Assembly: GCA_016935525.1 (NCBI GenBank)
Contig: JAFGQU010000013.1
Location: 26,523 to 90,522, forward strand
Reading direction: 5' to 3'
From: Candidatus Omnitrophota bacterium
Lineage (GTDB): Bacteria; Omnitrophota; Gorgyraeia; Duberdicusellales; 4484-171
Length of the DNA: 64,000 nt
The position numbers and the translations under genes were made by a program. Below the pieces are notes generated by a model. The model was not told where the DNA came from. It searched no databases and saw nothing but the letters and a program-made list of their open reading frames with translations. This document shows positions 6,872 through 64,000 of this stretch, in pieces. The stretch's first letter is position 1. Every line of letters starts with the position of its first letter.

Positions 6872-6987
6872 GGGGATATGGCAATAAACCAGTCGATAGT
6901 CGACGGTCTATGGTCGATAGTATAGAAAAATAAAAACTAAATGCCAAAGACTAACGACCAACGACTCTATACGGAGCTTTTAAGAAG

Positions 6988-13931: not shown

Positions 13932-15982
13932 GAGTGTTACAGATATTGCCTAAGATGAATATCGGAGGAGTGGAGAAAGGGGTGCTTGATTTTTCTTCTT
14001 ATTTTAAATCGGACATGGTCGTCGTCTCCGGCGGAGGAAGATGGGTGAAAAAGCTGGAAGAGGCCGGGGCGAAACATTATACCCTTTCGGTATACCGGAA
14101 ATCTCCGGTAAGTATTTTCTCAATCGGAAAATTGCGCCGGATAATCAAAGAAGAAAAGGTCGATATCGTCCATGCCCGTTCACGCGTGCCGGCGTGGATC
14201 GCTTTTTTCGCGACCCGGGGATTAGACGTCCCTTTTATGACTACCGCGCACGGAGCCTATTCGGTCCACAATTTCAGTGAAGTGATGGGGTGGGGTAAAT
14301 TCGTGATCTGTCCTTCGAAAAGTATCATCCGGCATATGATGGACAATTTCGGCGTACGTGAAAATAAAGTAAGGCTTGTCCCGCGGTGGGTAGATCTTGA
14401 TAAGTTCACTTTTAAACCGCAAACAGACCGGCGCCTGTGTAATTCGATCCTCAGTATCGGGCGGATCTCTCCTTCAAAAGGATACGAATACCTGATCGAA
14501 GCGTTCCGGAAGATCGCCCGGCATAATCCCTATTTGACCCTGACTATTGTCGGAGAAGCGGAACCTTCCAAAACGAAATATTTTCAATATTTAAAAAGTC
14601 TGGTCACACGATACGCTTTAAATTATCAGGTGCGTTTTCTGGGGTACCGGGAAGATGTCAATGAACTGCTCGATACCGCCTTCGCTTTGGTGATCCCTTC
14701 GGTCGTCGAAGAAGCGTTCGGCCGGGTGGTCGTTGAGGCGTTTGCCGCTGGCGTTCCGGTAGTCGCCACACGCATGGGAGCGTTGGAGGAGATCATCGAA
14801 CATCGTCAAGACGGGATCCTCGTGTTTCCCCGTAATGCCGACAGCCTCGCCGAAGGGCTTTTAGAGATCGTAAATAACCCGCCGCTGGCCCAGAAGCTCA
14901 TAGAGAATGCCCGCAGAAAAGTCGAAACCCTTTATTCTTTTTCCCATTGTGTGCGGGAGGTGGAAAAAGTATACCGGGAAGTGGTGCGTCATAAAAGAAT
15001 ACTGGTGATGAAGATATCTTCTTTAGGAGATGTGATCCTTTCGATCCCTTCTTTGAAAGCGATCAAAGAACAATGTCCCGACAGCGAACTTGTATTGCTT
15101 ACTCTCAAGAAGTACTCGTCTCTGTTCTACGGGTGTCCGTATGTCGATAGAGTTATCGGCCTTGACGCCGACTATAAACGGTTGCGTAACATCGTCCAGT
15201 TAAGCCGCTCTTTGAGAAGAGAGAGTTTCGATTACGTGATCGACCTGCAGAATAACCGCGCTTCCCACCTGATCGCTTTTTTGACGTTACCGCAGAAGTC
15301 GTTCGGATATTCCCGGAAATGGGGCAGATTATTGACGCATAAGGTTCCGGTATCGAAAAAGAGTGTTTCTCCTTTAGAATCTCAGGAAAAGATATTGAAC
15401 GCGGCCGGTATCGTTTTGACCGATAAAAGGCTCAGGTTATGGGATATGAACGTGTCTCAGCCTCAAAAATGGGAATTCTCCGATGAAGCCTGTATCGGTA
15501 TTAATATGTCGGCGTCGGTAAAGTGGCAGACTAAAAACTGGCCGTTGGCGCATACCAAGAAACTTATCGAATTGATCTTAAGAGAATTCCCTAAAATGAA
15601 GGTCGTATTGCTCGGTGACGAACATAGCGTAGCTGAATCTAAACTACTGGAGAAGATCGCGCCGCATTCGGTGATCAATCTGTGCGGAAAGACTACTCTG
15701 GGGGAACTGGTCGGTGTCCTTGCCCATGTAAAGATATTCATCACTCAGGATACAGCCCCTTTACACCTTGCCTGCGCGTTAGGGATCAAAGTGATCGCTC
15801 TTTTCGGCCCGACAGATCCGGATCGTCATACGGTAAAAAGCGATTATCTCCATCTGGTGGTGAGGAAAATACCCTGTTCATTCTGTTATAAACCGGTATG
15901 TAAAGATAACGTCTGTATGACCAAGATCACTCCTCAGGAAATAATGATGAGAATACAGAGTATATTAGGTAAATCAGGTTAA
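13928..15982 (+). CDS. bifunctional glycosyltransferase: GT4 (N-terminal) fused to GT9 LPS heptosyltransferase (C-terminal)
   Basis: N-terminal part has the GT4 E-x7-E region (EEAFGRVVVEAFAAGVPVV). From ~aa 355, ILVMKISSLGDVILSIPSLKAIKE... is the GT9/ADP-heptose heptosyltransferase N-terminus. Confidence 0.7.
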   Translation: MRVLQILPKMNIGGVEKGVLDFSSYFKSDMVVVSGGGRWVKKLEEAGAKHYTLSVYRKSPVSIFSIGKLRRIIKEEKVDIVHARSRVPAWIAFFATRGLDVPFMTTAHGAYSVHNFSEVMGWGKFVICPSKSIIRHMMDNFGVRENKVRLVPRWVDLDKFTFKPQTDRRLCNSILSIGRISPSKGYEYLIEAFRKIARHNPYLTLTIVGEAEPSKTKYFQYLKSLVTRYALNYQVRFLGYREDVNELLDTAFALVIPSVVEEAFGRVVVEAFAAGVPVVATRMGALEEIIEHRQDGILVFPRNADSLAEGLLEIVNNPPLAQKLIENARRKVETLYSFSHCVREVEKVYREVVRHKRILVMKISSLGDVILSIPSLKAIKEQCPDSELVLLTLKKYSSLFYGCPYVDRVIGLDADYKRLRNIVQLSRSLRRESFDYVIDLQNNRASHLIAFLTLPQKSFGYSRKWGRLLTHKVPVSKKSVSPLESQEKILNAAGIVLTDKRLRLWDMNVSQPQKWEFSDEACIGINMSASVKWQTKNWPLAHTKKLIELILREFPKMKVVLLGDEHSVAESKLLEKIAPHSVINLCGKTTLGELVGVLAHVKIFITQDTAPLHLACALGIKVIALFGPTDPDRHTVKSDYLHLVVRKIPCSFCYKPVCKDNVCMTKITPQEIMMRIQSILGKSG

Positions 15983-15993
15983 GAAATAGTTCG

Positions 15994-16076
15994 CGCGTTC
16001 ACCCGTGCTCGCGTTTCCCGCCACAGGCGGGATTCCCGTTCAAAAGAACGGGTACACGGGCGAACGGGAAAACGGG
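15994..16076. repeat. GC-rich nested palindromic element in the LPS cluster intergenic region
   Basis: Nested inverted repeats CGTTCACCCGTG/CACGGGCGAACG and GTTTCCCG/CGGGAAAAC around the hairpin CCCGTTC-AAAA-GAACGGG. Confidence 0.35.
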
Positions 16077-16098
16077 CTAACTCGACTATAGATTAAAT

Positions 16099-17930: not shown

Positions 17931-18100
17931 GTTACACGACACACGCCACACGCATGCCTGCTACGCAGGCCGTCACACGTTGCACGACACACGTCACATG
18001 TATTAATTCTTTCTCGACGTGTGACTATGTGACCTTGTGTCCTTGTGACTTGCCGAAGGCATACGTATGACGTGTGACCTTGTGACTATGTGACCTGCGT
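17931..18100. repeat. family-1 intergenic repeat element (GTCACA/TGTGAC octamer arrays), copy A
   Basis: Tandem NGTCACAN octamers followed by tandem NTGTGACN octamers, with embedded hairpins GCCTGCTACGCAGGC and TGCCGAAGGCA. Approximately the reverse complement of copy C at 44245-44408. Confidence 0.7.
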
Positions 18101-18103
18101 GTT

Positions 18104-21069: not shown

Positions 21070-21200
21070 TATCACTATTGTTAATATATACTTTTGAGTT
21101 TGTTTAAATAATTTTCAGAATAACCAATCACCAAACTGTCCAATTGATTTTACTTTATAAGGATGTCCGATTATTGAAATTTGATTATTGGTTATTGTTT

Positions 21201-26563: not shown

Positions 26564-26798
26564 GATGCATTTGGTAAAAGACCTATTTGAAGATGTTTTA
26601 ACCCATGCTCGCAATAACCAGGCCGATAAGGTGACGAAAGTATACCTTAAAATGGGCGAGTTTACCGAGATCAATGAAGAGGTGCTCCGGTTCTTTTTCA
26701 AAGAAAAAGGGGCCCAGACAATATTAGAAGGTGCCGAATTAGTCATCGAAAAAAGCCCGGCCCGCGAATTACGGCTGGTATCGTTTGATTGCGAGTAA
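26556..26798 (+). CDS. hypA: HypA-like nickel-insertion protein, N-terminal fragment lacking the Zn-finger (possible pseudogene)
   Basis: Starts MHEMHL (HypA MHE Ni-binding N-terminus). Ends at ...ELVIEKSPARELRLVSFDCE*, exactly where the first CxxC of the Zn finger should begin. The stop codon abuts the family-2 repeat. Confidence 0.45.
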   Translation: MHEMHLVKDLFEDVLTHARNNQADKVTKVYLKMGEFTEINEEVLRFFFKEKGAQTILEGAELVIEKSPARELRLVSFDCE

Positions 26799-26893
26799 AG
26801 ATGCAGATGATCGCTGATTTTGGATTCACACAGATGATCGCTGATATTATATCTGTGGCAATCTGTGATTCTCTGAATCTGTGATCATCAGCG
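26799..26893. repeat. family-2 intergenic repeat cluster (CAGATGATCGCTGAT / ATCTGTGATCATCAG units), locus E1
   Basis: Two forward units (GCAGATGATCGCTGAT, CACAGATGATCGCTGAT) and three ATCTGTG units in the opposite orientation within 95 nt. Confidence 0.6.
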
Positions 26894-26912
26894 TGAAGGA
26901 GCGAAGCGACGA

Positions 26913-34470: not shown

Positions 34471-34558
34471 TTGTGGTCACACGACACACGTCACAAGGTC
34501 ACACGTAAAGAAAACAGGTGATTTACCTGTGACGTGTGACTATGTGACTTTGTGACCC
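34471..34558. repeat. family-1 repeat element, copy B
   Basis: GGTCACACGACACACGTCACAAGGTCACACG, a 22-nt spacer, then TGTGACGTGTGACTATGTGACTTTGTGACC. Confidence 0.7.
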
Positions 34559-34569
34559 GAATAAAAGGT

Positions 34570-43186: not shown

Positions 43187-44244
43187 AAAGGATTTCTCTT
43201 AACGCTCAAAATTCCGATCTGTCTCTTTTCCAGGAAGTAAAAGATATTATCCTGAAAGGAGGAATCGTGGCGTTACCGACCGAGACCGTATATGGGCTGG
43301 GAGCGTTGGCCCGTAGTAAGTCGGCAGTCGAAAAACTGGTTGCGCTTAAACAACGGGATCTGAACAAACCGTTTACTCTGGTCGTAGGGAACATCGATCA
43401 GGCATTGAATATTTTTATGACCTTGCCTCCTTACGGGTACCGGCTCATCGAACGGTTCTGGCCCGGGCCGTTGACGCTTATTTTCTATGATAAAAAAGGG
43501 GATAAGGTGGGCATACGGGTGCCGGCCCATGAAGTATTACAACGGATATTGACCGGATTGACCGAACCGATCTATCTTCCTTCGGCCAATATCAGCGGAA
43601 ATAAGGAATCGTTAAGCGCCGATGAAGTAGAAACCGTGTTTAACGGGAGGATCGACCTGATCGTCGATAGCGGCGCTCCTCAGTATTGTCAGCCTTCTAC
43701 GGTGTTGGATATTACGTATCATCCTTTTAAGATCCTGAGGGAAGGGGTGGTGAGTACCCGGGAGATCGTCGAGAGTTTTGTGAGAAAACGGCTGGTATTT
43801 GTATGTACGGGTAATACCTGCCGTTCGGTACTTGGTGAATATCTTTTGAAAAAATATTTATTCGAATATGATCCGGGCCTTGCCGATCGATACGAGATCA
43901 TCTCCCGCGGAGTTTCTGCCGGCATTGGATGCGGAGCTTCCGATGGGGTGCTCGATATCCTTTTTCATGAAGAACAGATCGGGGCGGTAGACCATATATC
44001 GCAACGGTTAGACCATTATACGGTCCTTTCGTCAGACTTGATATTTACTATGGAAGAAAGTCAGAGAGAGTATGTGCTTCAAATGGAGCCCACGGCGGAG
44101 GCGAGAGTATTTGCGTTAAGTAAATTCTTGCCGGGAAGCCCGCAAAAAGATATTCAGGACCCTATCGGCCAGCCGAAGGAAGTGTATCAAAAAGCCTATG
44201 AATTGATAAAACAGAGTGTGGTAGAATTGAGAGAATGGCTGTAA
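43183..44244 (+). CDS. tsaC: fusion protein: L-threonylcarbamoyladenylate synthase (TsaC/YrdC) with C-terminal low-molecular-weight protein phosphatase domain
   Basis: YrdC fold (LPTETVYGLGA, KPFTLVV). From ~aa 200, VFVCTGNTCRSVLGEYL is the LMW-PTP CX5R P-loop, and DPIGQ is the LMW-PTP DP general-acid motif (YwlE-like). Confidence 0.75.
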   Translation: MKRISLNAQNSDLSLFQEVKDIILKGGIVALPTETVYGLGALARSKSAVEKLVALKQRDLNKPFTLVVGNIDQALNIFMTLPPYGYRLIERFWPGPLTLIFYDKKGDKVGIRVPAHEVLQRILTGLTEPIYLPSANISGNKESLSADEVETVFNGRIDLIVDSGAPQYCQPSTVLDITYHPFKILREGVVSTREIVESFVRKRLVFVCTGNTCRSVLGEYLLKKYLFEYDPGLADRYEIISRGVSAGIGCGASDGVLDILFHEEQIGAVDHISQRLDHYTVLSSDLIFTMEESQREYVLQMEPTAEARVFALSKFLPGSPQKDIQDPIGQPKEVYQKAYELIKQSVVELREWL

Positions 44245-44408
44245 TCACGTCACAAAGTCACATAGTCACAAGGTCACACGTGTGCCTTCGGCATGTCACA
44301 AGGACACATAGACACATGGTCACAAGTAAAGAGAAAAATACGTGTGACGTGTGTCGTGCAACGTGTGACAAGCCTGCTGGGTAGGCTTTCGTGTGTCGTG
44401 TGACTTAT
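44245..44408. repeat. family-1 repeat element, copy C (longest)
   Basis: CACGTCACAAAGTCACATAGTCACAAGGTCACACG - TGCCTTCGGCA - TGTCACAAGGACACATAGACACATGGTCACAAG ... GTGTGACGTGTGTCGTGCAACGTGTGAC - AAGCCTGCTGGGTAGGCTT - TCGTGTGTCGTGTGAC. Reverse complement of copy A. Confidence 0.7.
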
Positions 44409-44873: not shown

Positions 44874-46128
44874 AATTCTCAAAAATGTAGATCCCCAGGT
44901 ATATCAGAGTATCGTCCACGAGATCCATCGTCAGCGGGATCAGATCGAATTGATTGCCAGTGAAAATTTTGCGCCACTTGCGGTATTGGCGGCGGCGGCT
45001 TCTCCGCTTACCAATAAATACGCCGAAGGGTACCCCCGGGCCCGCTGGTACGGCGGATGTCAGTATATCGATCAGGCCGAAGACCTCGCCCGGGAACGTG
45101 TAATAAAACTTTTCGGTGCCGAACATGCTAATGTCCAGCCTCATTCGGGGACTCAGGCTAATATGGCGGTCCTTTTGGCGATGTTGGACGCAGGAGACAC
45201 GATCTTAGCTATGGATCTTGCCTGTGGCGGGCATCTTTCTCACGGCCATCCGATGAATTTCAGCGGGAAGTTCTATAATGTGGTTTCCTACGGAGTAGAC
45301 CGTAAGACCGAACAATTGGATTATAACGAAATCTCAGAGCTTGCCTCGACTCATAAACCGAAATTGATCATTGCCGGGGCAAGCGCCTATCCGCGGATCA
45401 TAGATTTTGCCAAGTTCCGGGCGATCGCCGATAAAGTAGGTGCCTATCTTCTGGTGGATATGGCCCACTTTGCCGGAATGGTCGCCGCCGGAATATATCC
45501 TAATCCCGTAGAATATGCCGAGTTTGTGACTTCGACTACTCATAAAACATTACGCGGACCCCGCGGTGGGTTCATCCTTTGTCAGAAAAAATTTGCCAAA
45601 AAAATCGACTCAGCCGTCTTTCCCGGGATCCAGGGCGGCCCGCTTATGCATATTATTGCCGCTAAAGCCGTAGGGTTCGGGCTTTCATTGAAAGATGAGT
45701 TTAAAGAGTATCAGAAAAAACTGGTGCGCAACGCGGCCTATTTCGCCGATGCCTTGAGTAAGAAAGATTTCCGCATTGTCTCAGGCGGTACCGATACGCA
45801 TCTGTTTTTAGTCGATGTGAGGGCAAAAGGATTGACCGGCAAAGAATGTGCTACCTTTTTAGAAGAGGTCAATATTACGGTGAATAAAAATCTTATCCCT
45901 TATGATCCCGAGCCGCCGCTGGTAACCAGCGGTATTCGTATTGGGACTCCGGCAATCACTACCCGGGGGATGGGGACTCTTGAGATGGAAATACTTGCCG
46001 AATGTATTGAGATGGCGGTATGCAATCGTAAAGATGCCGGAAAGATGGATCAGGTAAAGGAAAAAGTCGCGCAATTGGCGGAAAAGTTCCCGCTTTATCC
46101 GGAGATCAAAGACGCGGATGATCGCTGA
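44863..46128 (+). CDS. glyA: serine hydroxymethyltransferase
   Basis: [20 protein letters not shown] (PLP-Lys). RBS GAGGAG before ATG 44863, overlapping the rpiB stop. Last codons DADDR* lie inside a family-2 repeat unit. Confidence 0.9.
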
Positions 46129-46155
46129 TTTGAAGAAACACAGATGATCGCAGAT
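46114..46155. repeat. family-2 repeat units, locus E2
   Basis: GCGGATGATCGCTGAT and CACAGATGATCGCAGAT span the glyA stop and the probable comEB start region. Confidence 0.5.
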
Positions 46156-46167
46156 ATGAGTATGAAT

Positions 46168-48993: not shown

Positions 48994-49757
48994 AGATAGA
49001 TACTACGGAGATCATTGTCTTACGGGAAAAGGTAGATAAGATTTCTGCGGATGCGGTCGTCTCTGTTCCCGGACAGTTTACCGATGAGGAGAAGGTACGT
49101 AGATTTACTTTCGATTCTTTAGGCGAAGCGCAGAAAAAAAAGAATAAAATCGTTGTGTTTTCCCTGTTGCCAGAGGAGCCCACAGGGTTAGGCTCCGGTA
49201 TCGTATCCAAAATAATGGCGCAGGAAGTCTTACGGTATGTGCGGACCGCTACACCGGATTTCTCGAAAATCATCTTTGTCGTATCTACCGAAGAGATGCG
49301 TTTGCTTTTCGAAAAGAATATGTATGGGTATCTGCACCATATGACTCACACCTTGAGCCGGGGCCCGTATCTTACCGTAGACGCGATCATCGAATATGGC
49401 GGCGGTATCGTGATGGTCGAACGGAGTAACCCTCCCCTGGGGTGGGCATTACCCGGGGGGTTCGTCGATTACGGCGAAAGCGCCGAAGATGCCGTATGCC
49501 GGGAGGTGAAAGAAGAGACACATCTTGATTTCGAAAATATAACACAGTTTAAGGTGTATTCTCAACCCTCACGGGATCCCCGATTCCATACGGTTTCGGT
49601 AGTCTTTTATGGGGTCGCCCGCGGCGAACCGACGGCTGATTCCGACGCCAAAGGGGTCGGGGTATTTGATTTAGATGAACTGCCTTCAATAATCGCTTTT
49701 GATCATCGTCAGATCATTGAAGATTATAGAAAATTAAAAATGAAAGATGAAAAATAA
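48990..49757 (+). CDS. NUDIX hydrolase with uncharacterised ~125-aa N-terminal domain
   Basis: Nudix box GGFVDYGESAEDAVCREVKEETHL. The N-terminal domain is not confidently assignable. Confidence 0.7.
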   Translation: MKIDTTEIIVLREKVDKISADAVVSVPGQFTDEEKVRRFTFDSLGEAQKKKNKIVVFSLLPEEPTGLGSGIVSKIMAQEVLRYVRTATPDFSKIIFVVSTEEMRLLFEKNMYGYLHHMTHTLSRGPYLTVDAIIEYGGGIVMVERSNPPLGWALPGGFVDYGESAEDAVCREVKEETHLDFENITQFKVYSQPSRDPRFHTVSVVFYGVARGEPTADSDAKGVGVFDLDELPSIIAFDHRQIIEDYRKLKMKDEK

Positions 49758-49843
49758 AAAATGTTAATTTTTATTTCCAGTTTTCATCTTTAACTTTCTT
49801 CGATTTTTTATTTTTAATATTTAATTTTTCATATTTATTTGCT
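49725..49843. repeat. AT-rich ~100-nt element (family 3), copy 1, spanning the nudix 3' end and the recG leader
   Basis: ATTAAAAATGAAAGATGAAAAATAAAAAATG...TTTTTTATTTTTAATATTTAATTTTTCATATTT. Shares ~85% identity over the first ~33 nt with 62175-62268 and shares the TTTTTTATYTTTAATWTTTAAYWTTTAATTTT block. Confidence 0.45.
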
Positions 49844-55627: not shown

Positions 55628-55720
55628 GCCGATGATCACAGAAGGAAAGACACAGATGATCACTGATGGAAATATCTGCGATAGTCTGTGTATATTCAAA
55701 ATCTGTGCTCATCTGTGCAT
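55628..55720. repeat. family-2 repeat cluster, locus E3
   Basis: GATGATCACAG, CACAGATGATCACTGAT, ATCTGCGAT, TCTGTGTAT, AATCTGTGCTCATCTGTGCAT between fabH and fabD. Confidence 0.55.
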
Positions 55721-59062: not shown

Positions 59063-60334
59063 ATGGGATTGACGTTAATTAAAAAAATTTTGCAGGCGCA
59101 TTCTTCTCAAAGCACATTGGAAGATTTTATCTATGCGGATGTCGATTTCTGTTTTGGGAACGATATTACCGCGCCTCTGGCCGTGAAAGCGTTTGGCGCG
59201 GCCGGATTTACCACTATTTTTGATAAAAATAAAATAGGTTTTATTTGCGACCATTTCTTGCCGGCCCGGGATCTTAAAGCGGCTAACAACGTGAAGCTTT
59301 TGCGTGATTTCGCAAAAGAGTATAGCATAACGAATTTTTATGATATTCAGCAATGCGGGGTCGAACACGTTTTTCTCGTCGAGCGAGGCCTCGTAAAACC
59401 GGGAAATCTGGTCATCGGCGCCGATTCGCATACTTGTACGTACGGAGCGATCGGGTGTGCCGCGTTTGGAGTAGGGTCGACGGATCTGGGATGTGTGATG
59501 AAAGAAGGTAAAGTCTGGTTAAGGGTCCCTGAGACTCTTCGTTTTATATATAAAGGTAAACCGGGGAAATGGCTTTGCGGGAAAGATCTGATCCTCGCGA
59601 CAATCGGAAAGATCGGGGTTGACGGGGCACTCTATAAAGTAATGGAGTTTTCCGGCCCGGTGATGAAGAAGATGGGGATAGAAGATAGATTGACGATGAC
59701 GAATATGGCAGTTGAAGCCGGCGCGAAAACCGGGATCGTCGAACCGGACGAGGCGACATTTGATTATCTGAAAAAAGTCCAAAAAGGATTTACATTCACG
59801 AAATCGCTGCGGGATTTAAAACGCGACGAAGATGCCGAGTATGCCGATAGTATAGAGATCGATGTGACCAACATGCAGCCTCAGGTCGCCTGTCCCCACC
59901 TGCCGAGTAATACCAAACCGGTAGGCAGTTTAAAAAAGATAAAATTAGACCAGGTGTTTATCGGGTCTTGTACCAACGGTAGATTCTCTGATTTAGAGGT
60001 TGCCGCCCGTATGTTACGGGGAAAAAAAGTGAAACGGGGCCTGAGGGTGATCGTGAGCCCGGCAACACCGGCTATTTTTAAACAGGCAGAAAAAAAAGGA
60101 TTTTTGAAAATATTTGTCGAAGCCGGCTGTATGGTCGCCCCGCCTACCTGCGGGCCTTGTTTAGGCGGGCATATGGGTATCCTTGATAAAGGTGAGACGG
60201 CGCTTGCGACCAGTAACCGTAACTTTATCGGCAGGATGGGAGATCCTGATTCATTTTTATATCTCTCTTCACCGGCAGTGGCGGCGGCCAGCGCGATTAA
60301 AGGGCGGATTACGCATCCGGATGAGATTGCGTAA
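59063..60334 (+). CDS. leuC: 3-isopropylmalate dehydratase large subunit (archaeal-type LeuC; could be homoaconitase-type)
   Basis: Aconitase-family large subunit, ~420-aa short type, with cluster-ligand cysteines (GSCTNGR, CGPCLG). Confidence 0.8.
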   Translation: MGLTLIKKILQAHSSQSTLEDFIYADVDFCFGNDITAPLAVKAFGAAGFTTIFDKNKIGFICDHFLPARDLKAANNVKLLRDFAKEYSITNFYDIQQCGVEHVFLVERGLVKPGNLVIGADSHTCTYGAIGCAAFGVGSTDLGCVMKEGKVWLRVPETLRFIYKGKPGKWLCGKDLILATIGKIGVDGALYKVMEFSGPVMKKMGIEDRLTMTNMAVEAGAKTGIVEPDEATFDYLKKVQKGFTFTKSLRDLKRDEDAEYADSIEIDVTNMQPQVACPHLPSNTKPVGSLKKIKLDQVFIGSCTNGRFSDLEVAARMLRGKKVKRGLRVIVSPATPAIFKQAEKKGFLKIFVEAGCMVAPPTCGPCLGGHMGILDKGETALATSNRNFIGRMGDPDSFLYLSSPAVAAASAIKGRITHPDEIA

Positions 60335-60403
60335 CGCGAAACGAGTAACGCGTACCGCGAAAAAGACACGAAGTACGAACGACTCACGACGAACGACGAG
60401 ATT

Positions 60404-61136: not shown

Positions 61137-62204
61137 ATGAGTAAATATAGTATCGCGGTGGTTGGAGGAGACGGGACCGGGCCGGAGGTGGTAAAAGAAG
61201 GATTGAAAGTCCTTAAGGCTACCGCTTCCGTATGCGGGTTTACCTACGAAACTGTCGATTATGATATCGGAGGGGAAAGATATTTAAAAACGAACGAGAT
61301 CCTTCCCGATTCCGTGGTCGAAGGACTGAAAAGGTGCGATGCGATCTATTTGGGAGCAATTGGCGATCCGCGGGTTAAACCGGGCATCTTGGAAAAAGGG
61401 ATATTGTTGAAACTCAGGTTTACTCTCGATCAATATGTGAATCTTCGGCCGGTGGTTTTGTACGATAAACGGTTTTGTCCTCTGAAGGATAAAAAAGAAG
61501 AAGATATTGATTTTGTAGTGGTGAGGGAAAATACCGAAGGGCTCTATTGTGGAGCCGGGGGATTCCTTAAAAAAGGGACAAAAGATGAAGTCGCGATCCA
61601 GGAAAGTATTAATACCTATAAAGGAGCTGAACGGGTGATCCGGTTTGCTTTCGAATATGCCCGCAGAAGAAATAAAAGGAAAAAAGTCACTCTTTGCGGG
61701 AAGACCAACGTGCTGACCTATGCGTTTGATCTGTGGGAGCGGACGTTTTACGCGGTCGCGAAAGAATATCCCGATATCCAGGCCGATTACGCTCATGTCG
61801 ATGCGACCTGTATGTGGATGGTCAAAAGTCCGGAATGGTTTGATGTGATTGTGACCGATAATATGTTCGGAGATATCATCACGGACCTGGGTGCGATGAT
61901 CCAGGGGGGGATGGGGATCGCGGCCGGAGGGAATATCAATCCGCAGGGGGTCTCCATGTTCGAACCCATCGGCGGGAGCGCTCCTAAATATACCGGGAAG
62001 AACGTGATCAATCCCCTGGCGGCAATATGCGCTGTAGGGATGTTATTAGACCAGATCGGCGAACAGGACGCCGGCCAAAGAATAGAGACTGCGGTGAAAA
62101 AAGTGGTAAAAGAGAAACTAGAAAGTTTTTCTGCCGGGAAAATGGGCTATTCTACGTCGGAAGTAGGAGATCTGGTCGCGGAATATATTAAAAATGAAAA
62201 ATGA
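61137..62204 (+). CDS. leuB: 3-isopropylmalate dehydrogenase (isocitrate/isopropylmalate DH family)
   Basis: MSKYSIAVVGGDGTGPEV N-terminus and NMFGDIITDLGA signature. Confidence 0.8.
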   Translation: MSKYSIAVVGGDGTGPEVVKEGLKVLKATASVCGFTYETVDYDIGGERYLKTNEILPDSVVEGLKRCDAIYLGAIGDPRVKPGILEKGILLKLRFTLDQYVNLRPVVLYDKRFCPLKDKKEEDIDFVVVRENTEGLYCGAGGFLKKGTKDEVAIQESINTYKGAERVIRFAFEYARRRNKRKKVTLCGKTNVLTYAFDLWERTFYAVAKEYPDIQADYAHVDATCMWMVKSPEWFDVIVTDNMFGDIITDLGAMIQGGMGIAAGGNINPQGVSMFEPIGGSAPKYTGKNVINPLAAICAVGMLLDQIGEQDAGQRIETAVKKVVKEKLESFSAGKMGYSTSEVGDLVAEYIKNEK

Positions 62205-62268
62205 AAAACAAAAAAGGGTTATTCTTTTTTTCTATATTTTTTATCTTTAATTTTTAACATTTAATTTT
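62175..62268. repeat. AT-rich element (family 3), copy 2, spanning the leuB 3' end and the asd leader
   Basis: ATTAAAAATGAAAAATGAAAAACAAAAAAG...TTTTTTATCTTTAATTTTTAACATTTAATTTT. See copy 1. Confidence 0.45.
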
Positions 62269-63294
62269 ATGAAGAAGTATCATGTAGCGGTAGTCGGTGT
62301 GGGGGTCGTGGGGATTGAGATTTTGAAATGTCTTAAAAGCCGCAGTTTCCCCATAGCGAATTTACGGGTGTTTGCCCGTTCGGCGCGCGCGATAGAAGTC
62401 GAGGGGATCGAATATGAAGTCGAAGCAATAGGTGATGAACGGTTTGACGGGGTTGAGATCGCTTTGTTTGCCGGTACCGAAGGAGAAAAAGGAGCAAGTA
62501 AGCTCTATGCCCATAAATTTATCGAGAAAGGGGCAATCGTCGTTGATAACGGCGCCGATTTCCGGCTCGAACATGATGTCCCGTTGGTCGTGCCGGAAGC
62601 TAATCGTGACGCGGTCAAGAACCATAAAGGCCTTATTGCCAATCCTAATTGTACTACTATCCAGGCTATCGTCGCATTGTGCGGTATTCACCGTGAGTTC
62701 GGTTTAGAGAGAATATTGCTTACCAGTTTTCAGGCAACCAGCGGTGCCGGGAAAAAAGCCGCGATGAAATTATGGGAAGAAGCCCGTACTCTTGTGAACA
62801 TAAACAGAAATAAAGAGTTTGACGAGATTCATAAGGATGTCGATAGTGAATTTGATGTGTTCAGCCATCAGATCGCGTTTAACGTGATCCCCCAGATCGG
62901 CGGGTTTGCCGAAGACGGATATACTTCTGAAGAATGGAAAGTGGTGAACGAGACCCATAAGATCCTGAATGATGATTCTATCCGGATTTCTTCTACCTGC
63001 GTGAGAGTACCGGTATTTACTGCCCACAGTGAAGCGATCTATTTTGAAACTAAAAAAGACGCCGATCATGCTCAGATCGAGAAAGTCCTTAAAGATTCTG
63101 AAGGAGTGAAATACTTCGCGGATTCGTCGTTCCCTTTGCCTCTGGAAGTCGAGGGGACCGATCTCACATATGTTGCGCGTCTCAGACGCGATCCGTTCAA
63201 CAAGAATTGTTTTTGGATCTGGGTGGTCGCTGACAATCTGCGTAAAGGGGCCGCTTTGAATGCGGTCCAGATCGCGGAAGAACTTACCAAATAA
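62269..63294 (+). CDS. asd: aspartate-semialdehyde dehydrogenase
   Basis: VAVVGVGVVG N-terminus and active-site IANPNCTTI. Confidence 0.9.
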   Translation: MKKYHVAVVGVGVVGIEILKCLKSRSFPIANLRVFARSARAIEVEGIEYEVEAIGDERFDGVEIALFAGTEGEKGASKLYAHKFIEKGAIVVDNGADFRLEHDVPLVVPEANRDAVKNHKGLIANPNCTTIQAIVALCGIHREFGLERILLTSFQATSGAGKKAAMKLWEEARTLVNINRNKEFDEIHKDVDSEFDVFSHQIAFNVIPQIGGFAEDGYTSEEWKVVNETHKILNDDSIRISSTCVRVPVFTAHSEAIYFETKKDADHAQIEKVLKDSEGVKYFADSSFPLPLEVEGTDLTYVARLRRDPFNKNCFWIWVVADNLRKGAALNAVQIAEELTK

Positions 63295-63380
63295 GGTCAC
63301 ACGACACATAGACACACGTCACATGTTTTTGCTTTCTGGTTTTTACGTGTGACTCTGTGACCATGTGACTTTGTGACTAT
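63295..63380. repeat. family-1 repeat element, copy D (intergenic part)
   Basis: GGTCACACGACACATAGACACACGTCACATG, a T-rich spacer, then ACGTGTGACTCTGTGACCATGTGACTTTGTGACT, immediately before the truA ATG. Confidence 0.65.
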
Positions 63381-63384
63381 CTAC

Positions 63385-64000
63385 ATGAAGAACATACTAT
63401 TAAGATTGGAATATGACGGAAGTGATTATTTTGGATGGCAGATCCAGTCCGAAAAAAAGTCACACGGCACACGACATACGACACACGTGAAGAGCGAAAA
63501 AGCCAAAACAGTGCAGGGTGAGGTGGAAAAGGCGATAGAAAAGCTTTTTCGTCAAAAGGTAAAGTTGATCTATGCCGGCCGGACCGATCGCGGCGTACAT
63601 GCCAAAGATCAAGTCTTGAATTTTTTCGTCGATACCACCATCCCTATTGCCAATATAAAAGGCGCGCTGAATAGTTTTTTACCCGGAGATATCCGCGTGA
63701 AACGGGTAAAGAAAGTATCTGATGATTTCCATGCCCGGTTCAGCGTTTCAACGAAGATATACCGGTACCGTATCCTTAACGTAAAAGAACCTTCGGTGTT
63801 TGAACGTACTCGTTCCTGGTGGGTGCCCGATCCACTCGATCTTAAAGTTATGCAGTCGGTCGCCAAAAAGCTTATCGGATATAAAGACCGTAGCCTTTTT
63901 GCGAAACAGCCGGACCTTTATCATGACTGCCGCCGAAGGATCTTTGCCATACATATTAAGAAAAAAAGTCCGTTTGTTATTATCGATATTGAAGCTGACG
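63385..64000 (+). CDS. truA: tRNA pseudouridine(38-40) synthase TruA (3' end outside the window), with an in-frame repeat-derived insertion
   Basis: MKNILLRLEYDGSDYFGWQIQ...YAGRTDRGVHA (catalytic Asp)...FHARFS...YRYRI. No stop before position 64000. Codons 63459-63489 (SHGTRHTTHV) are a family-1 repeat arm. Confidence 0.85.
   Translation, partial: MKNILLRLEYDGSDYFGWQIQSEKKSHGTRHTTHVKSEKAKTVQGEVEKAIEKLFRQKVKLIYAGRTDRGVHAKDQVLNFFVDTTIPIANIKGALNSFLPGDIRVKRVKKVSDDFHARFSVSTKIYRYRILNVKEPSVFERTRSWWVPDPLDLKVMQSVAKKLIGYKDRSLFAKQPDLYHDCRRRIFAIHIKKKSPFVIIDIEAD
63459..63489. repeat. family-1 repeat arm embedded in-frame inside truA
   Basis: GTCACACGGCACACGACATACGACACACGTG, heptad CACACG-type units identical in style to the left arms of copies A-D. 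Flanked by the imperfect direct repeat CGAAAAAAAG / CGAAAAAGCC. Confidence 0.6.

Follow-up and report, generated by a model that had tools for sequence, protein, structure and literature searches.

Tandem repeats whose unit is not a multiple of three nucleotides are normally purged from housekeeping genes, where a single slip destroys the reading frame. The contingency loci of host-adapted bacteria, for example Neisseria and Haemophilus, vary in phase by slipped-strand mispairing and are typically surface or restriction-modification genes, with demonstrated on/off alleles and many more copies of the repeat than in the gene described here. This gene, truA, is located at the end of a 64,000-nt stretch (the window) of a Candidatus Omnitrophota genome (GCA_016935525.1, contig JAFGQU010000013.1, positions 26,523–90,522) and carries an in-frame heptanucleotide array in its 5' part. 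In coding microsatellites, a surface loop grows or shrinks by tandem DNA duplication, and the resulting peptide is disordered and poorly conserved. In-frame insertions of the miniature inverted-repeat transposable element (MITE) and repetitive extragenic palindrome (REP) types in coding genes have been reviewed, including the Rickettsia palindromic elements (RPE), which are palindromic units of ~150 bp, each with a conserved peptide, scattered over many genes (PMC10969869). The protein segment concerned is known from the TruA superfamily: Y24GWQRQNEV32 of Escherichia coli TruA contacts tRNA and is equivalent to the thumb loop of yeast PUS1 (Tyr83–Thr99; PMC10631681), and in both PUS3 and the TruA–tRNA complex, the L1 finger loop contacts the anticodon stem-loop in its major groove (PMC11258540).

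The truA array is probably a coding short tandem repeat amplified in situ by slippage, of which only frame-preserving changes by three units have survived. As in contingency loci, a non-triplet repeat of high unit identity is located near the 5' end of the coding region and differs in copy number between close relatives; the gene, however, codes for a tRNA pseudouridine synthase, the copies number only ~4–5, and all differences observed are in-frame steps of three units. As in RPE and MITE insertions, repeat DNA with relatives in an intergenic family is translated in the frame of a housekeeping gene and yields a peptide compatible with the fold. Unlike RPE, it is a 31-nt single-arm array of 7-nt units with no palindrome in the gene, it occupies one site of one gene across the phylum, its units are lineage-specific, and its length changes in 21-nt steps. 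A unit of 7 (sometimes 8) nt, instead of 3 or 6, distinguishes it from coding microsatellites; with a 7-nt unit the frame is kept in three-unit steps only, and all three phases of the unit are represented in the peptide. The thumb loop of the TruA superfamily is the same element: it follows the first strand, contacts substrate RNA beside the active-site cleft and also varies in length and position between members. These differences are, however, fixed between paralogues, whereas the Omnitrophota loop is polymorphic within species-level clusters and appears to be driven by a DNA repeat.

The gene and its extra segment comprise three features:

63385–64000, plus strand: truA coding sequence, first 205 codons, running off the end of the window; matched by PF01416
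63448–63507, plus strand: codons 22–41 (SEKKSHGTRHTTHVKSEKAK), the expanded L1/thumb loop between GWQIQ and TVQGE, placed by alignment and structural model
63459–63489, plus strand: heptanucleotide array GTCACACG GCACACG ACATACG ACACACG TG, read as SHGTRHTTHV, detected with Tandem Repeats Finder (TRF)

The truA frame begins with the ATG at 63385, is open as far as the window end and translates as MKNILLRLEYDGSDYFGWQIQSEKKSHGTRHTTHVKSEKAKTVQGEVEKAIEKLFRQKVKLIYAGRTDRGVHA..., in the order MKNILLRLEYDGSDYFGWQIQ-SEKKSHGTRHTTHVKSEKAK-TVQGEVEKAI...AGRTDRGVHA. The full-length protein of 261 aa (P0255; NCBI MBN2483419.1) is encoded on a 161-kb contig of the metagenome-assembled genome (MAG). It matches the PF01416 (PseudoU_synth_1) profile (E = 1.2e-15, 58.3 bits, cut-off 23.3), and its best relatives are TruA proteins named by their sources as Candidatus Omnitrophota or Omnitrophica. 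The motif of the catalytic aspartate, AGRTDRGVHA, is intact at residues 64–73, with R66, T67, and D68 invariant in the alignment (A1). The product is predicted to be TruA, tRNA pseudouridine(38-40) synthase.

Sixteen residues absent from E. coli TruA follow LEYDGSDYFGWQIQ in the window protein; the HMMER alignment to E. coli TruA (1DJ0) has a gap of exactly 16 residues directly opposite KSHGTRHTTHVKSEKA, in agreement with the ~16 extra residues counted in an earlier note on this DNA. The core of the extra residues, SHGTRHTTHV, is encoded in frame by 31 nt at 63459–63489 (GTCACACGGCACACGACATACGACACACGTG), which occur once in the window; translation and alignment agree with that note in placing it inside the conserved N-terminal region. 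The L1 loop comprises 20 aa, compared to 4 aa in most bacteria. The repeat detected by TRF spans 63461–63487, with a period of 7, 3.9 copies of the unit CACACGA and 85% matches.

Fifteen other Omnitrophota truA genes, belonging to two deep clades, contain 4–5 tandem heptamers or octamers at the same site, the unit being particular to each gene. Between GWQxQ and T(V/I)Q, the loop measures 7–8 residues in a large group of Omnitrophota and 13–34 in the subclade nearest to the window. The loop arrays include the following, those of L181, L191, L197, L209, and L216 having been found with a metagenome-contig pattern that specified only the conserved flanks, irrespective of loop content and frame:

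L003: GTCGCCGT GTCACCAT GTTGCCAC GTCACCGG
L084: (GTCACCAN)x4
L085: GTCACCAC GTCACAAA GTCACCCC, a nested segment of 35 nt, then GTCACAAG
L233: (AGAAGTC)x4.1, perfect
L234: (GTCACAG)x3.7
L235: (GGTCCAC)x4.4
L181: GTCACAA type
L191: GTKAAAA
L197: AAACCAG
L209: AANTCAA
L216: AGTCCAC, perfect
L236 and L238: AGTCACA and CGTCGTC, respectively

Autocorrelation at a lag of 7 or 8 nt reached p ≤ 0.0065 against shuffled sequences in 13 of the 42 distinct long loops with DNA; the remaining long loops, including those of GC-rich groups unlike Omnitrophota, did not reach this level. In a crude neighbor-joining (NJ) tree, the array loci fall into two deeply separated TruA clades, both with members named by their sources as Omnitrophota or PVC group. 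At the protein level, at least three identities at a lag of seven residues (21 nt, three heptamers) were found in 22 of the 67 clade-2 loops of 10–16 aa (shuffled mean 0.58), and lags of 4, 5, 6, 8, and 9 residues gave background values. A full-text literature search returned nothing on tandem repeats in Omnitrophota truA. The site appears to be a phylum-wide hotspot in Omnitrophota, at which lineage-specific arrays are gained, lost and replaced quickly.

Some of these loci have additional peculiarities. In L085 (791–870) the array is broken by the nested cgaaggaaagtcttcgacttcctacggggcaggcag, which resembles the small GC-rich hairpin modules of a repeat family in the spacers of the window (family-1, described below). 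Arrays with a nested segment are also found in P0213 (38-aa loop) and P0215 (22-aa loop), the segment of the latter being SAKGGSAYGGK, a peptide similar to that of L085. Within truA of L191 (1069–1108, minus strand), a second array, (GCAAATT/GCAGATT)x5.7, is located ~40 codons downstream of the loop array; it encodes ANCRLQIADCKLQ, which takes the place of the usual ANFK..T.. segment and leaves the length nearly unchanged. In P0251 and P0253 (P0198 cluster; contigs of 22–23 kb) the called TruA begins at VQ of GWQVQ, just upstream of the array, so that the called open reading frame (ORF) lacks the first 19 residues and with them the first strand. This may reflect a disrupted N terminus or an artefact of start calling.

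The loop lengths of clade 2 are bimodal (4–7 and 11–13 residues), and close relatives switch between 5-aa loops (RKGLK, KSKIK, VSKFK) and 12-aa loops (KSTVHSPQSTLK, KSKIKNQKSKLR). L216 and L241, with 82% aa identity, are distinguished at the array by one 21-nt indel corresponding to exactly three AGTCCAC units. Three contrasts were found inside 90%-identity clusters: KSKVQSKKSKVK versus KSKVK in otherwise nearly identical proteins, KSPQSIVHSPQTK versus KSNIKNQISKSK, where the unit is replaced, and NSCQLSAVSCQPK versus NKKYR. Two properties of a slippage repeat are present, namely a non-triplet in-frame tandem unit of high identity (85% in the window, 100% in the nearest different lineage, L001) and copy-number differences between close relatives (L216/L241; KSKVQSKKSKVK versus KSKVK). 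The basal KSKIK loop of L242 (AAATCCAAAATTAAA) already consists of two imperfect heptamers, and the AGTC core common to many units falls on the Lys-Ser codons AAG TCN with which the loop begins. The 21-nt steps and the seeds in basal loops argue for amplification of a local seed with frame-preserving three-unit changes rather than for import of foreign DNA. In the 90%-identity clusters of P0175 and of P0205/P0262/P0263, ~25 residues after the loop, comprising the first helix, vary more than the rest of the protein, a possible sign of recombination near the array or of mosaic N-terminal segments there.

The nearest different lineage is represented by P0002 (locus L001, GCA_964483625.1), with 65% aa identity. 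Its truA reads SHDTRHTTHV in the corresponding codons, the DNA being GTCACACG(ACACACG)x3TG, a perfect (CACACGA)x3.9 array with 100% matches in TRF. The segment is thus not private to one lineage. The earlier note had named the same loop in orthologues from unrelated lineages as the mark of an ancestral one, and by this mark it would be ancestral at least for these two lineages. The array is the most conserved stretch of truA at the nucleotide level between the window and L001 (93%, compared to 43–90% in other 10-codon segments), and identical residues are encoded by identical codons in 8 of 9 cases within the array versus 55 of 121 outside it (Fisher one-sided p = 0.013). This conservation would fit homogenization of the repeat or arrays younger than their flanks, and also selection on the nucleotide sequence. 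A scan of genome contigs with the TruA alignment yielded at least six Omnitrophota loci among the matches listed, none of them close, and most of these matches came from other phyla.

The location of the array in the protein was predicted with AlphaFold, using a 53-sequence alignment and P0001, the same protein minus its first seven residues, as the query. The model has a mean predicted local distance difference test score (pLDDT) of 92.7 and a predicted TM-score (pTM) of 0.88, and its best match in PDB is E. coli TruA with tRNA (2NQP_D; TM 0.89, rmsd 1.7 Å). The loop is the only weak region, with mean pLDDT of 73 and 51 in its 10-residue blocks, values below 50 at residues 25–27 and no secondary structure. 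The segment is thus predicted to be a disordered loop on an intact TruA fold. Of the surface loop of mobile-element origin suggested in the earlier note, the flexible surface loop on an intact fold agrees with the model, whereas the loop does not appear to be an arbitrary one: the alignment and the model indicate that the array lengthens the substrate-contacting L1/thumb loop beside the active site.

The proposed mechanism is as follows. Four copies of a 7-nt unit (NCACACG) sit in the part of truA encoding the L1/thumb loop, and the array would have arisen, and would stay repetitive, by slipped-strand mispairing on a seed of loop codons (AAG TCA CAC G..). Since seven is not a multiple of three, TruA stays in frame only when three units (21 nt, 7 aa) are gained or lost or when slips compensate one another, and variants of these two kinds would be the survivors; the window sequence minus three units is SEKKSHVKSEKAK. 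With all three codon phases translated, the array would give an S/H/T/R/V-rich disordered extension of the loop that grips the anticodon stem-loop of the tRNA; elsewhere the enzyme is presumably a normal TruA.

Several observations weigh against this explanation. In L003, the sister of L001 in the NJ tree, the array is equally long but octamer-like and quite different, so that replacement is needed and not simple vertical decay. No length variant was found in the species of the window, whose cluster consists of two entries with the same sequence, and no out-of-frame array allele was found in a small sample, the five array-bearing truA obtained with the frame-blind metagenome pattern. The copy in the window is imperfect (85% matches) and may now be fairly static. 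The end-to-end match to family-1, together with a family-1 element 80 nt upstream, would also fit transfer between spacer and gene.

TruA is a near-universal enzyme of tRNA modification, and the 7-nt array in its substrate-contacting loop recurs at this one site in two deep clades of an uncultured phylum, with turnover seen between near-identical strains. The thumb loops of these loci form a natural length series that could help in understanding how the enzyme holds the anticodon stem-loop. The loci are also a candidate case, outside pathogens, of phase or length variation affecting a translation-related gene, and could give a lead on the origin of the heptamer and octamer hairpin repeats filling Omnitrophota spacers. 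They further suggest that a loop with the appearance of an insertion in an alignment may have arisen by amplification of a local repeat.

Similar arrays occur in other genes. Under a stricter TRF threshold, 288 kb of Omnitrophota loci contain 24 arrays of period 7 or 8, of which 10 are in ORFs, six in the truA loop and one in argC. The truA count is biased, because all loci had truA at their center and their loops were the reason for choosing some of them, and the ~250 other genes, ~4 of which carry arrays of period 7 or 8, are the fair background. The argC array of L236 (3572–3602) is a perfect (AAGCCGC)x4.4; that of L238 (12719–12737) is (AAAAGTC)x2.7 and is located at the same codon (about 250), the two ArgC proteins being equally long at this site. 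The phenomenon is not strictly limited to truA, argC being a second position-conserved coding array, and the truA L1 loop is the main coding site of such arrays in the data seen.

It is unlikely that the array is kept by selection as a contingency locus, in which one-unit slips would switch TruA and three-unit slips would tune the loop length, and the phase-variable pseudouridylation of positions 38–40 that this implies is unlikely to the same degree. Such a function could be suggested by the non-triplet repeat in the 5' part of the coding region, the perfect or near-perfect units in many lineages (100% in L001, L216, and L233), the length polymorphism inside 90%-identity clusters and the persistence of the site across the phylum while the unit turns over, given that point mutation alone would erase the periodicity. 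The contact of the loop with the substrate and the position-conserved array in argC point in the same direction, as does the 3- to 5-fold increase in mutation frequency on loss of TruA in Pseudomonas putida, reported in one study (PMC7822408). On the other hand, the out-of-frame alleles number zero among the five array-bearing truA, ~4 copies are few for high-rate switching, the array of the window is degenerate, and neutral persistence in a permissive loop of a non-essential gene explains the same facts. The wider proposal that Omnitrophota keep position-conserved heptanucleotide arrays, in the TruA L1 loop and in argC, as true hypermutable switches is doubtful. If it were true, one-unit slips would toggle TruA and produce population variation in anticodon-stem pseudouridylation, decoding and possibly mutation rate, and three-unit slips would retune the tRNA-contacting loop. 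In that case, the process generating these repeats would also have produced the intergenic hairpin families, and gene-internal arrays would have been the seeds of some of these families.

A mobile origin, proposed in the earlier note, has to be considered in view of the similarity of the array to family-1. The features concerned are:

17931–18103, no strand assigned: family-1 composite intergenic element with heptamer and octamer arrays and small GC hairpins
34476–34565, no strand assigned: family-1 intergenic hairpin element
44242–44406, no strand assigned: family-1 composite intergenic element, an inverted copy of 17931–18103, with the arm closest to the truA array
63296–63380, plus strand: family-1 hairpin in the asd(usg)–truA spacer, with left arm 63296–63326, loop, and right arm 63345–63380 (TGTGACNN x4.1), the latter complementary to the truA array
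63450–63459, plus strand: left copy of an imperfect direct repeat, CGAAAAAAAG, codons S-E-K-K, interpreted as coding sequence
63495–63504, plus strand: right imperfect direct repeat CGAAAAAGCC, codons S-E-K-A, judged to be coding sequence

The window is 92% coding and contains ~20 arrays with a period of 7 or 8 and at least three copies (TRF). That of truA is the only one in a real gene; the others are all in the 8% of non-coding DNA, often as complementary pairs that form hairpins, and have several different units. The word GTCACACG occurs 15 times in the window: 12 times in the four family-1 loci, once in truA, once at position 14603, and once more by the 44242–44406 locus, where the copy falls in a coding start. 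The truA array can be aligned with the family-1 arm (GTCACACGTTGCACGACACACGTCACACGT) over 30 nt without gaps, with 25/30 identities to the reverse complement of the 44242–44406 element and 24/30 to the arm in 17931–18103, the start and end phase being shared in both cases. The local score is 35, whereas neither 3000 random 31-mers nor 3000 shuffles gave more than 27, and 9 of 24 8-mers are shared with family-1, versus at most 6 in 200,000 random 31-mers. Both sequences are low-complexity arrays, for which a shared heptamer and phase are a fairer null, estimated at ~1e-3 to 1e-2; under this estimate the similarity still appears significant. The specific resemblance to family-1 claimed for the segment is thus borne out. 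The array conforms to the arm module of the family, GTCACACG...CAC(A/G)(C/T)GT, ~30 nt built from NCACACG heptamers. It does not conform to the hairpin and intergenic character of family-1, since it is coding and has no inverted partner, its sole complement being the separate upstream element. The arms of the family-1 hairpins repeat the heptamer of the truA array in an identical phase, which indicates that the two are related; transfer from gene to spacer, transfer from spacer to gene or conversion between them may each account for the relationship.

Insertion of one family-1 arm as a REP/MITE-like mobile element with target-site duplication, retained in a permissive loop on account of its frame, is nevertheless improbable as the origin of the segment. 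The ungapped match and the shared 8-mers are consistent with it; the 8-mers of the array core match family-1 loci almost exclusively, a family-1 element is located directly upstream of truA, and imperfect direct repeats are present on both sides of the segment. Nested extra segments within the arrays of L085, P0213, and P0215, that of L085 resembling the small GC hairpin modules of family-1, could likewise reflect insertion. However, no further copy of GTCACACG or family-1 is present in the 20.7 kb fetched around L001, which has the same array, and the repeats in the two L001 spacers syntenic to family-1 sites (asd–truA; downstream of rodA) are unrelated to it. Within truA, only a direct tandem repeat is present, a single arm with no inverted partner, palindrome or terminal inverted repeats inside the gene. 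Units at the same site in other lineages differ and match the local basal loop codons, relatives are separated by clean 21-nt indels, and the relevant null is the estimate of ~1e-3 to 1e-2, not the far smaller p-value of the random 31-mer control. The direct repeats, read in the earlier note as a target-site duplication, do exist, but they are SEKK/SEKA codons, also kept in L001 and L003, and their words CGAAAAAA and CGAAAAAG are A-rich and locally common, with 20 and 13 further occurrences in the window; on these grounds they are weak evidence for a target-site duplication, and that reading was set aside.

As far as can be judged from partial genomes, the presence of the array does not track the element family: L001 has it with no family-1 in the 20.7 kb, and clade-2 genomes have arrays in truA with few or no intergenic arrays nearby. 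Comparison of loop k-mers with the nearby intergenic repeats of the same genome was negative or underpowered for L001, L004, L005, L012, L191, L197, L236, and L238. An argument from strand bias, in which the reverse orientation would create TGA stops, applies in part only and was discarded, the window array having a stop in just one of three reverse frames and several units being open on both strands. With no palindrome, no convincing target-site duplication and no tie to the spacer family, the truA segment does not appear to be an element of the MITE or RPE type, and the evidence points to in-situ tandem amplification rather than transposition.

The array could in principle act at the RNA level, as a cis element that pairs with the upstream right arm (63345–63380) and controls truA translation or mRNA fate. 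In the minimum free energy (MFE) and centroid folds of 63290–63520, the array is base-paired to the right arm (z = −3.0), the duplex of the two being predicted at −27.6 kcal/mol, compared to −29.1 kcal/mol for the left and right arms. The MFE is −63.2 kcal/mol versus −44.3 kcal/mol with the array forced unpaired, the expected base pairs are 23.5 versus 0, and the excess nucleotide conservation of the array would also be consistent with this function. In L001, however, the upstream hairpin is unrelated and the array is unpaired, and no complementary partner was found in the upstream sequence read for L003, L085, L233, L234, L236, and L238 (for L084 this sequence comprised only 27 nt). Either pairing partner would occlude the same region from −40 to −5, so there is no obvious switch, and no Rfam family matches at the gathering threshold anywhere in the window. 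A regulatory role is therefore very unlikely: an RNA switch is thermodynamically strong but was rejected as a general explanation because it is missing in L001 and other loci, and the pairing of array and arm is treated as a by-product of their sequence relationship. Autoregulation through His codons (hisT) was dropped, as many arrays encode no histidine. On the minus strand, the array with an A-run (63459–63482) resembles a weak terminator-like hairpin followed by TTTTTTT; G–T pairs were allowed in the scan, and the resemblance is probably incidental.

That the array is an assembly artefact or truA a pseudogene is hardly credible: the sequence is repetitive and derives from a MAG, but the 31-nt array is shorter than a read, the separate Logan assembly L002 is identical (100%) over 2034 nt including the extra stretch, the NCBI MAG protein MBN2483419.1 has the same sequence, the frame is open with GRTDRGVHA intact and a confident TruA fold in the model, and many independent assemblies carry homologous arrays.

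The gene preceding truA is also shared with relatives:

62269–63294, plus strand: aspartate-semialdehyde-dehydrogenase-like gene (asd/usg), directly upstream of truA

The neighborhood leuCD – Iso_dh – asd(usg) – truA is common to both Omnitrophota TruA clades, and the asd-like gene is located immediately before truA in the window, L001, L233, L238, and L242. This order resembles the usg-truA (hisT) operon of E. coli. A promoter and terminator scan of 62900–63700 revealed no plus-strand terminator or convincing promoter in the asd–truA spacer.

Besides family-1, most spacers of the window contain period-7 or period-8 arrays, which frequently form hairpins as pairs of complementary arrays (6891–6965, 16047–16081, 21169–21197, 26797–26900, 46108–46157, 49730–49837, 55641–55715, 60329–60399, and 62190–62268). 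At least seven different units are represented, for example AGTCGAT, AACGGGCA, AAAATGA/ATTTTTA, GCGTAAC, and CACAGAT/ATCTGTG, the last type being also present in the spacers of L001. A scan of viral contigs for GTCACNNN x4 gave 95 matches and was dropped as uninformative, octamer arrays with this core being commonplace. In L233, a further array, (AATCACC)x4.3 at 1559–1588, is located at the very start of a gene of 506 aa that overlaps the truA stop codon, and is read as KITNHQPPVTN.

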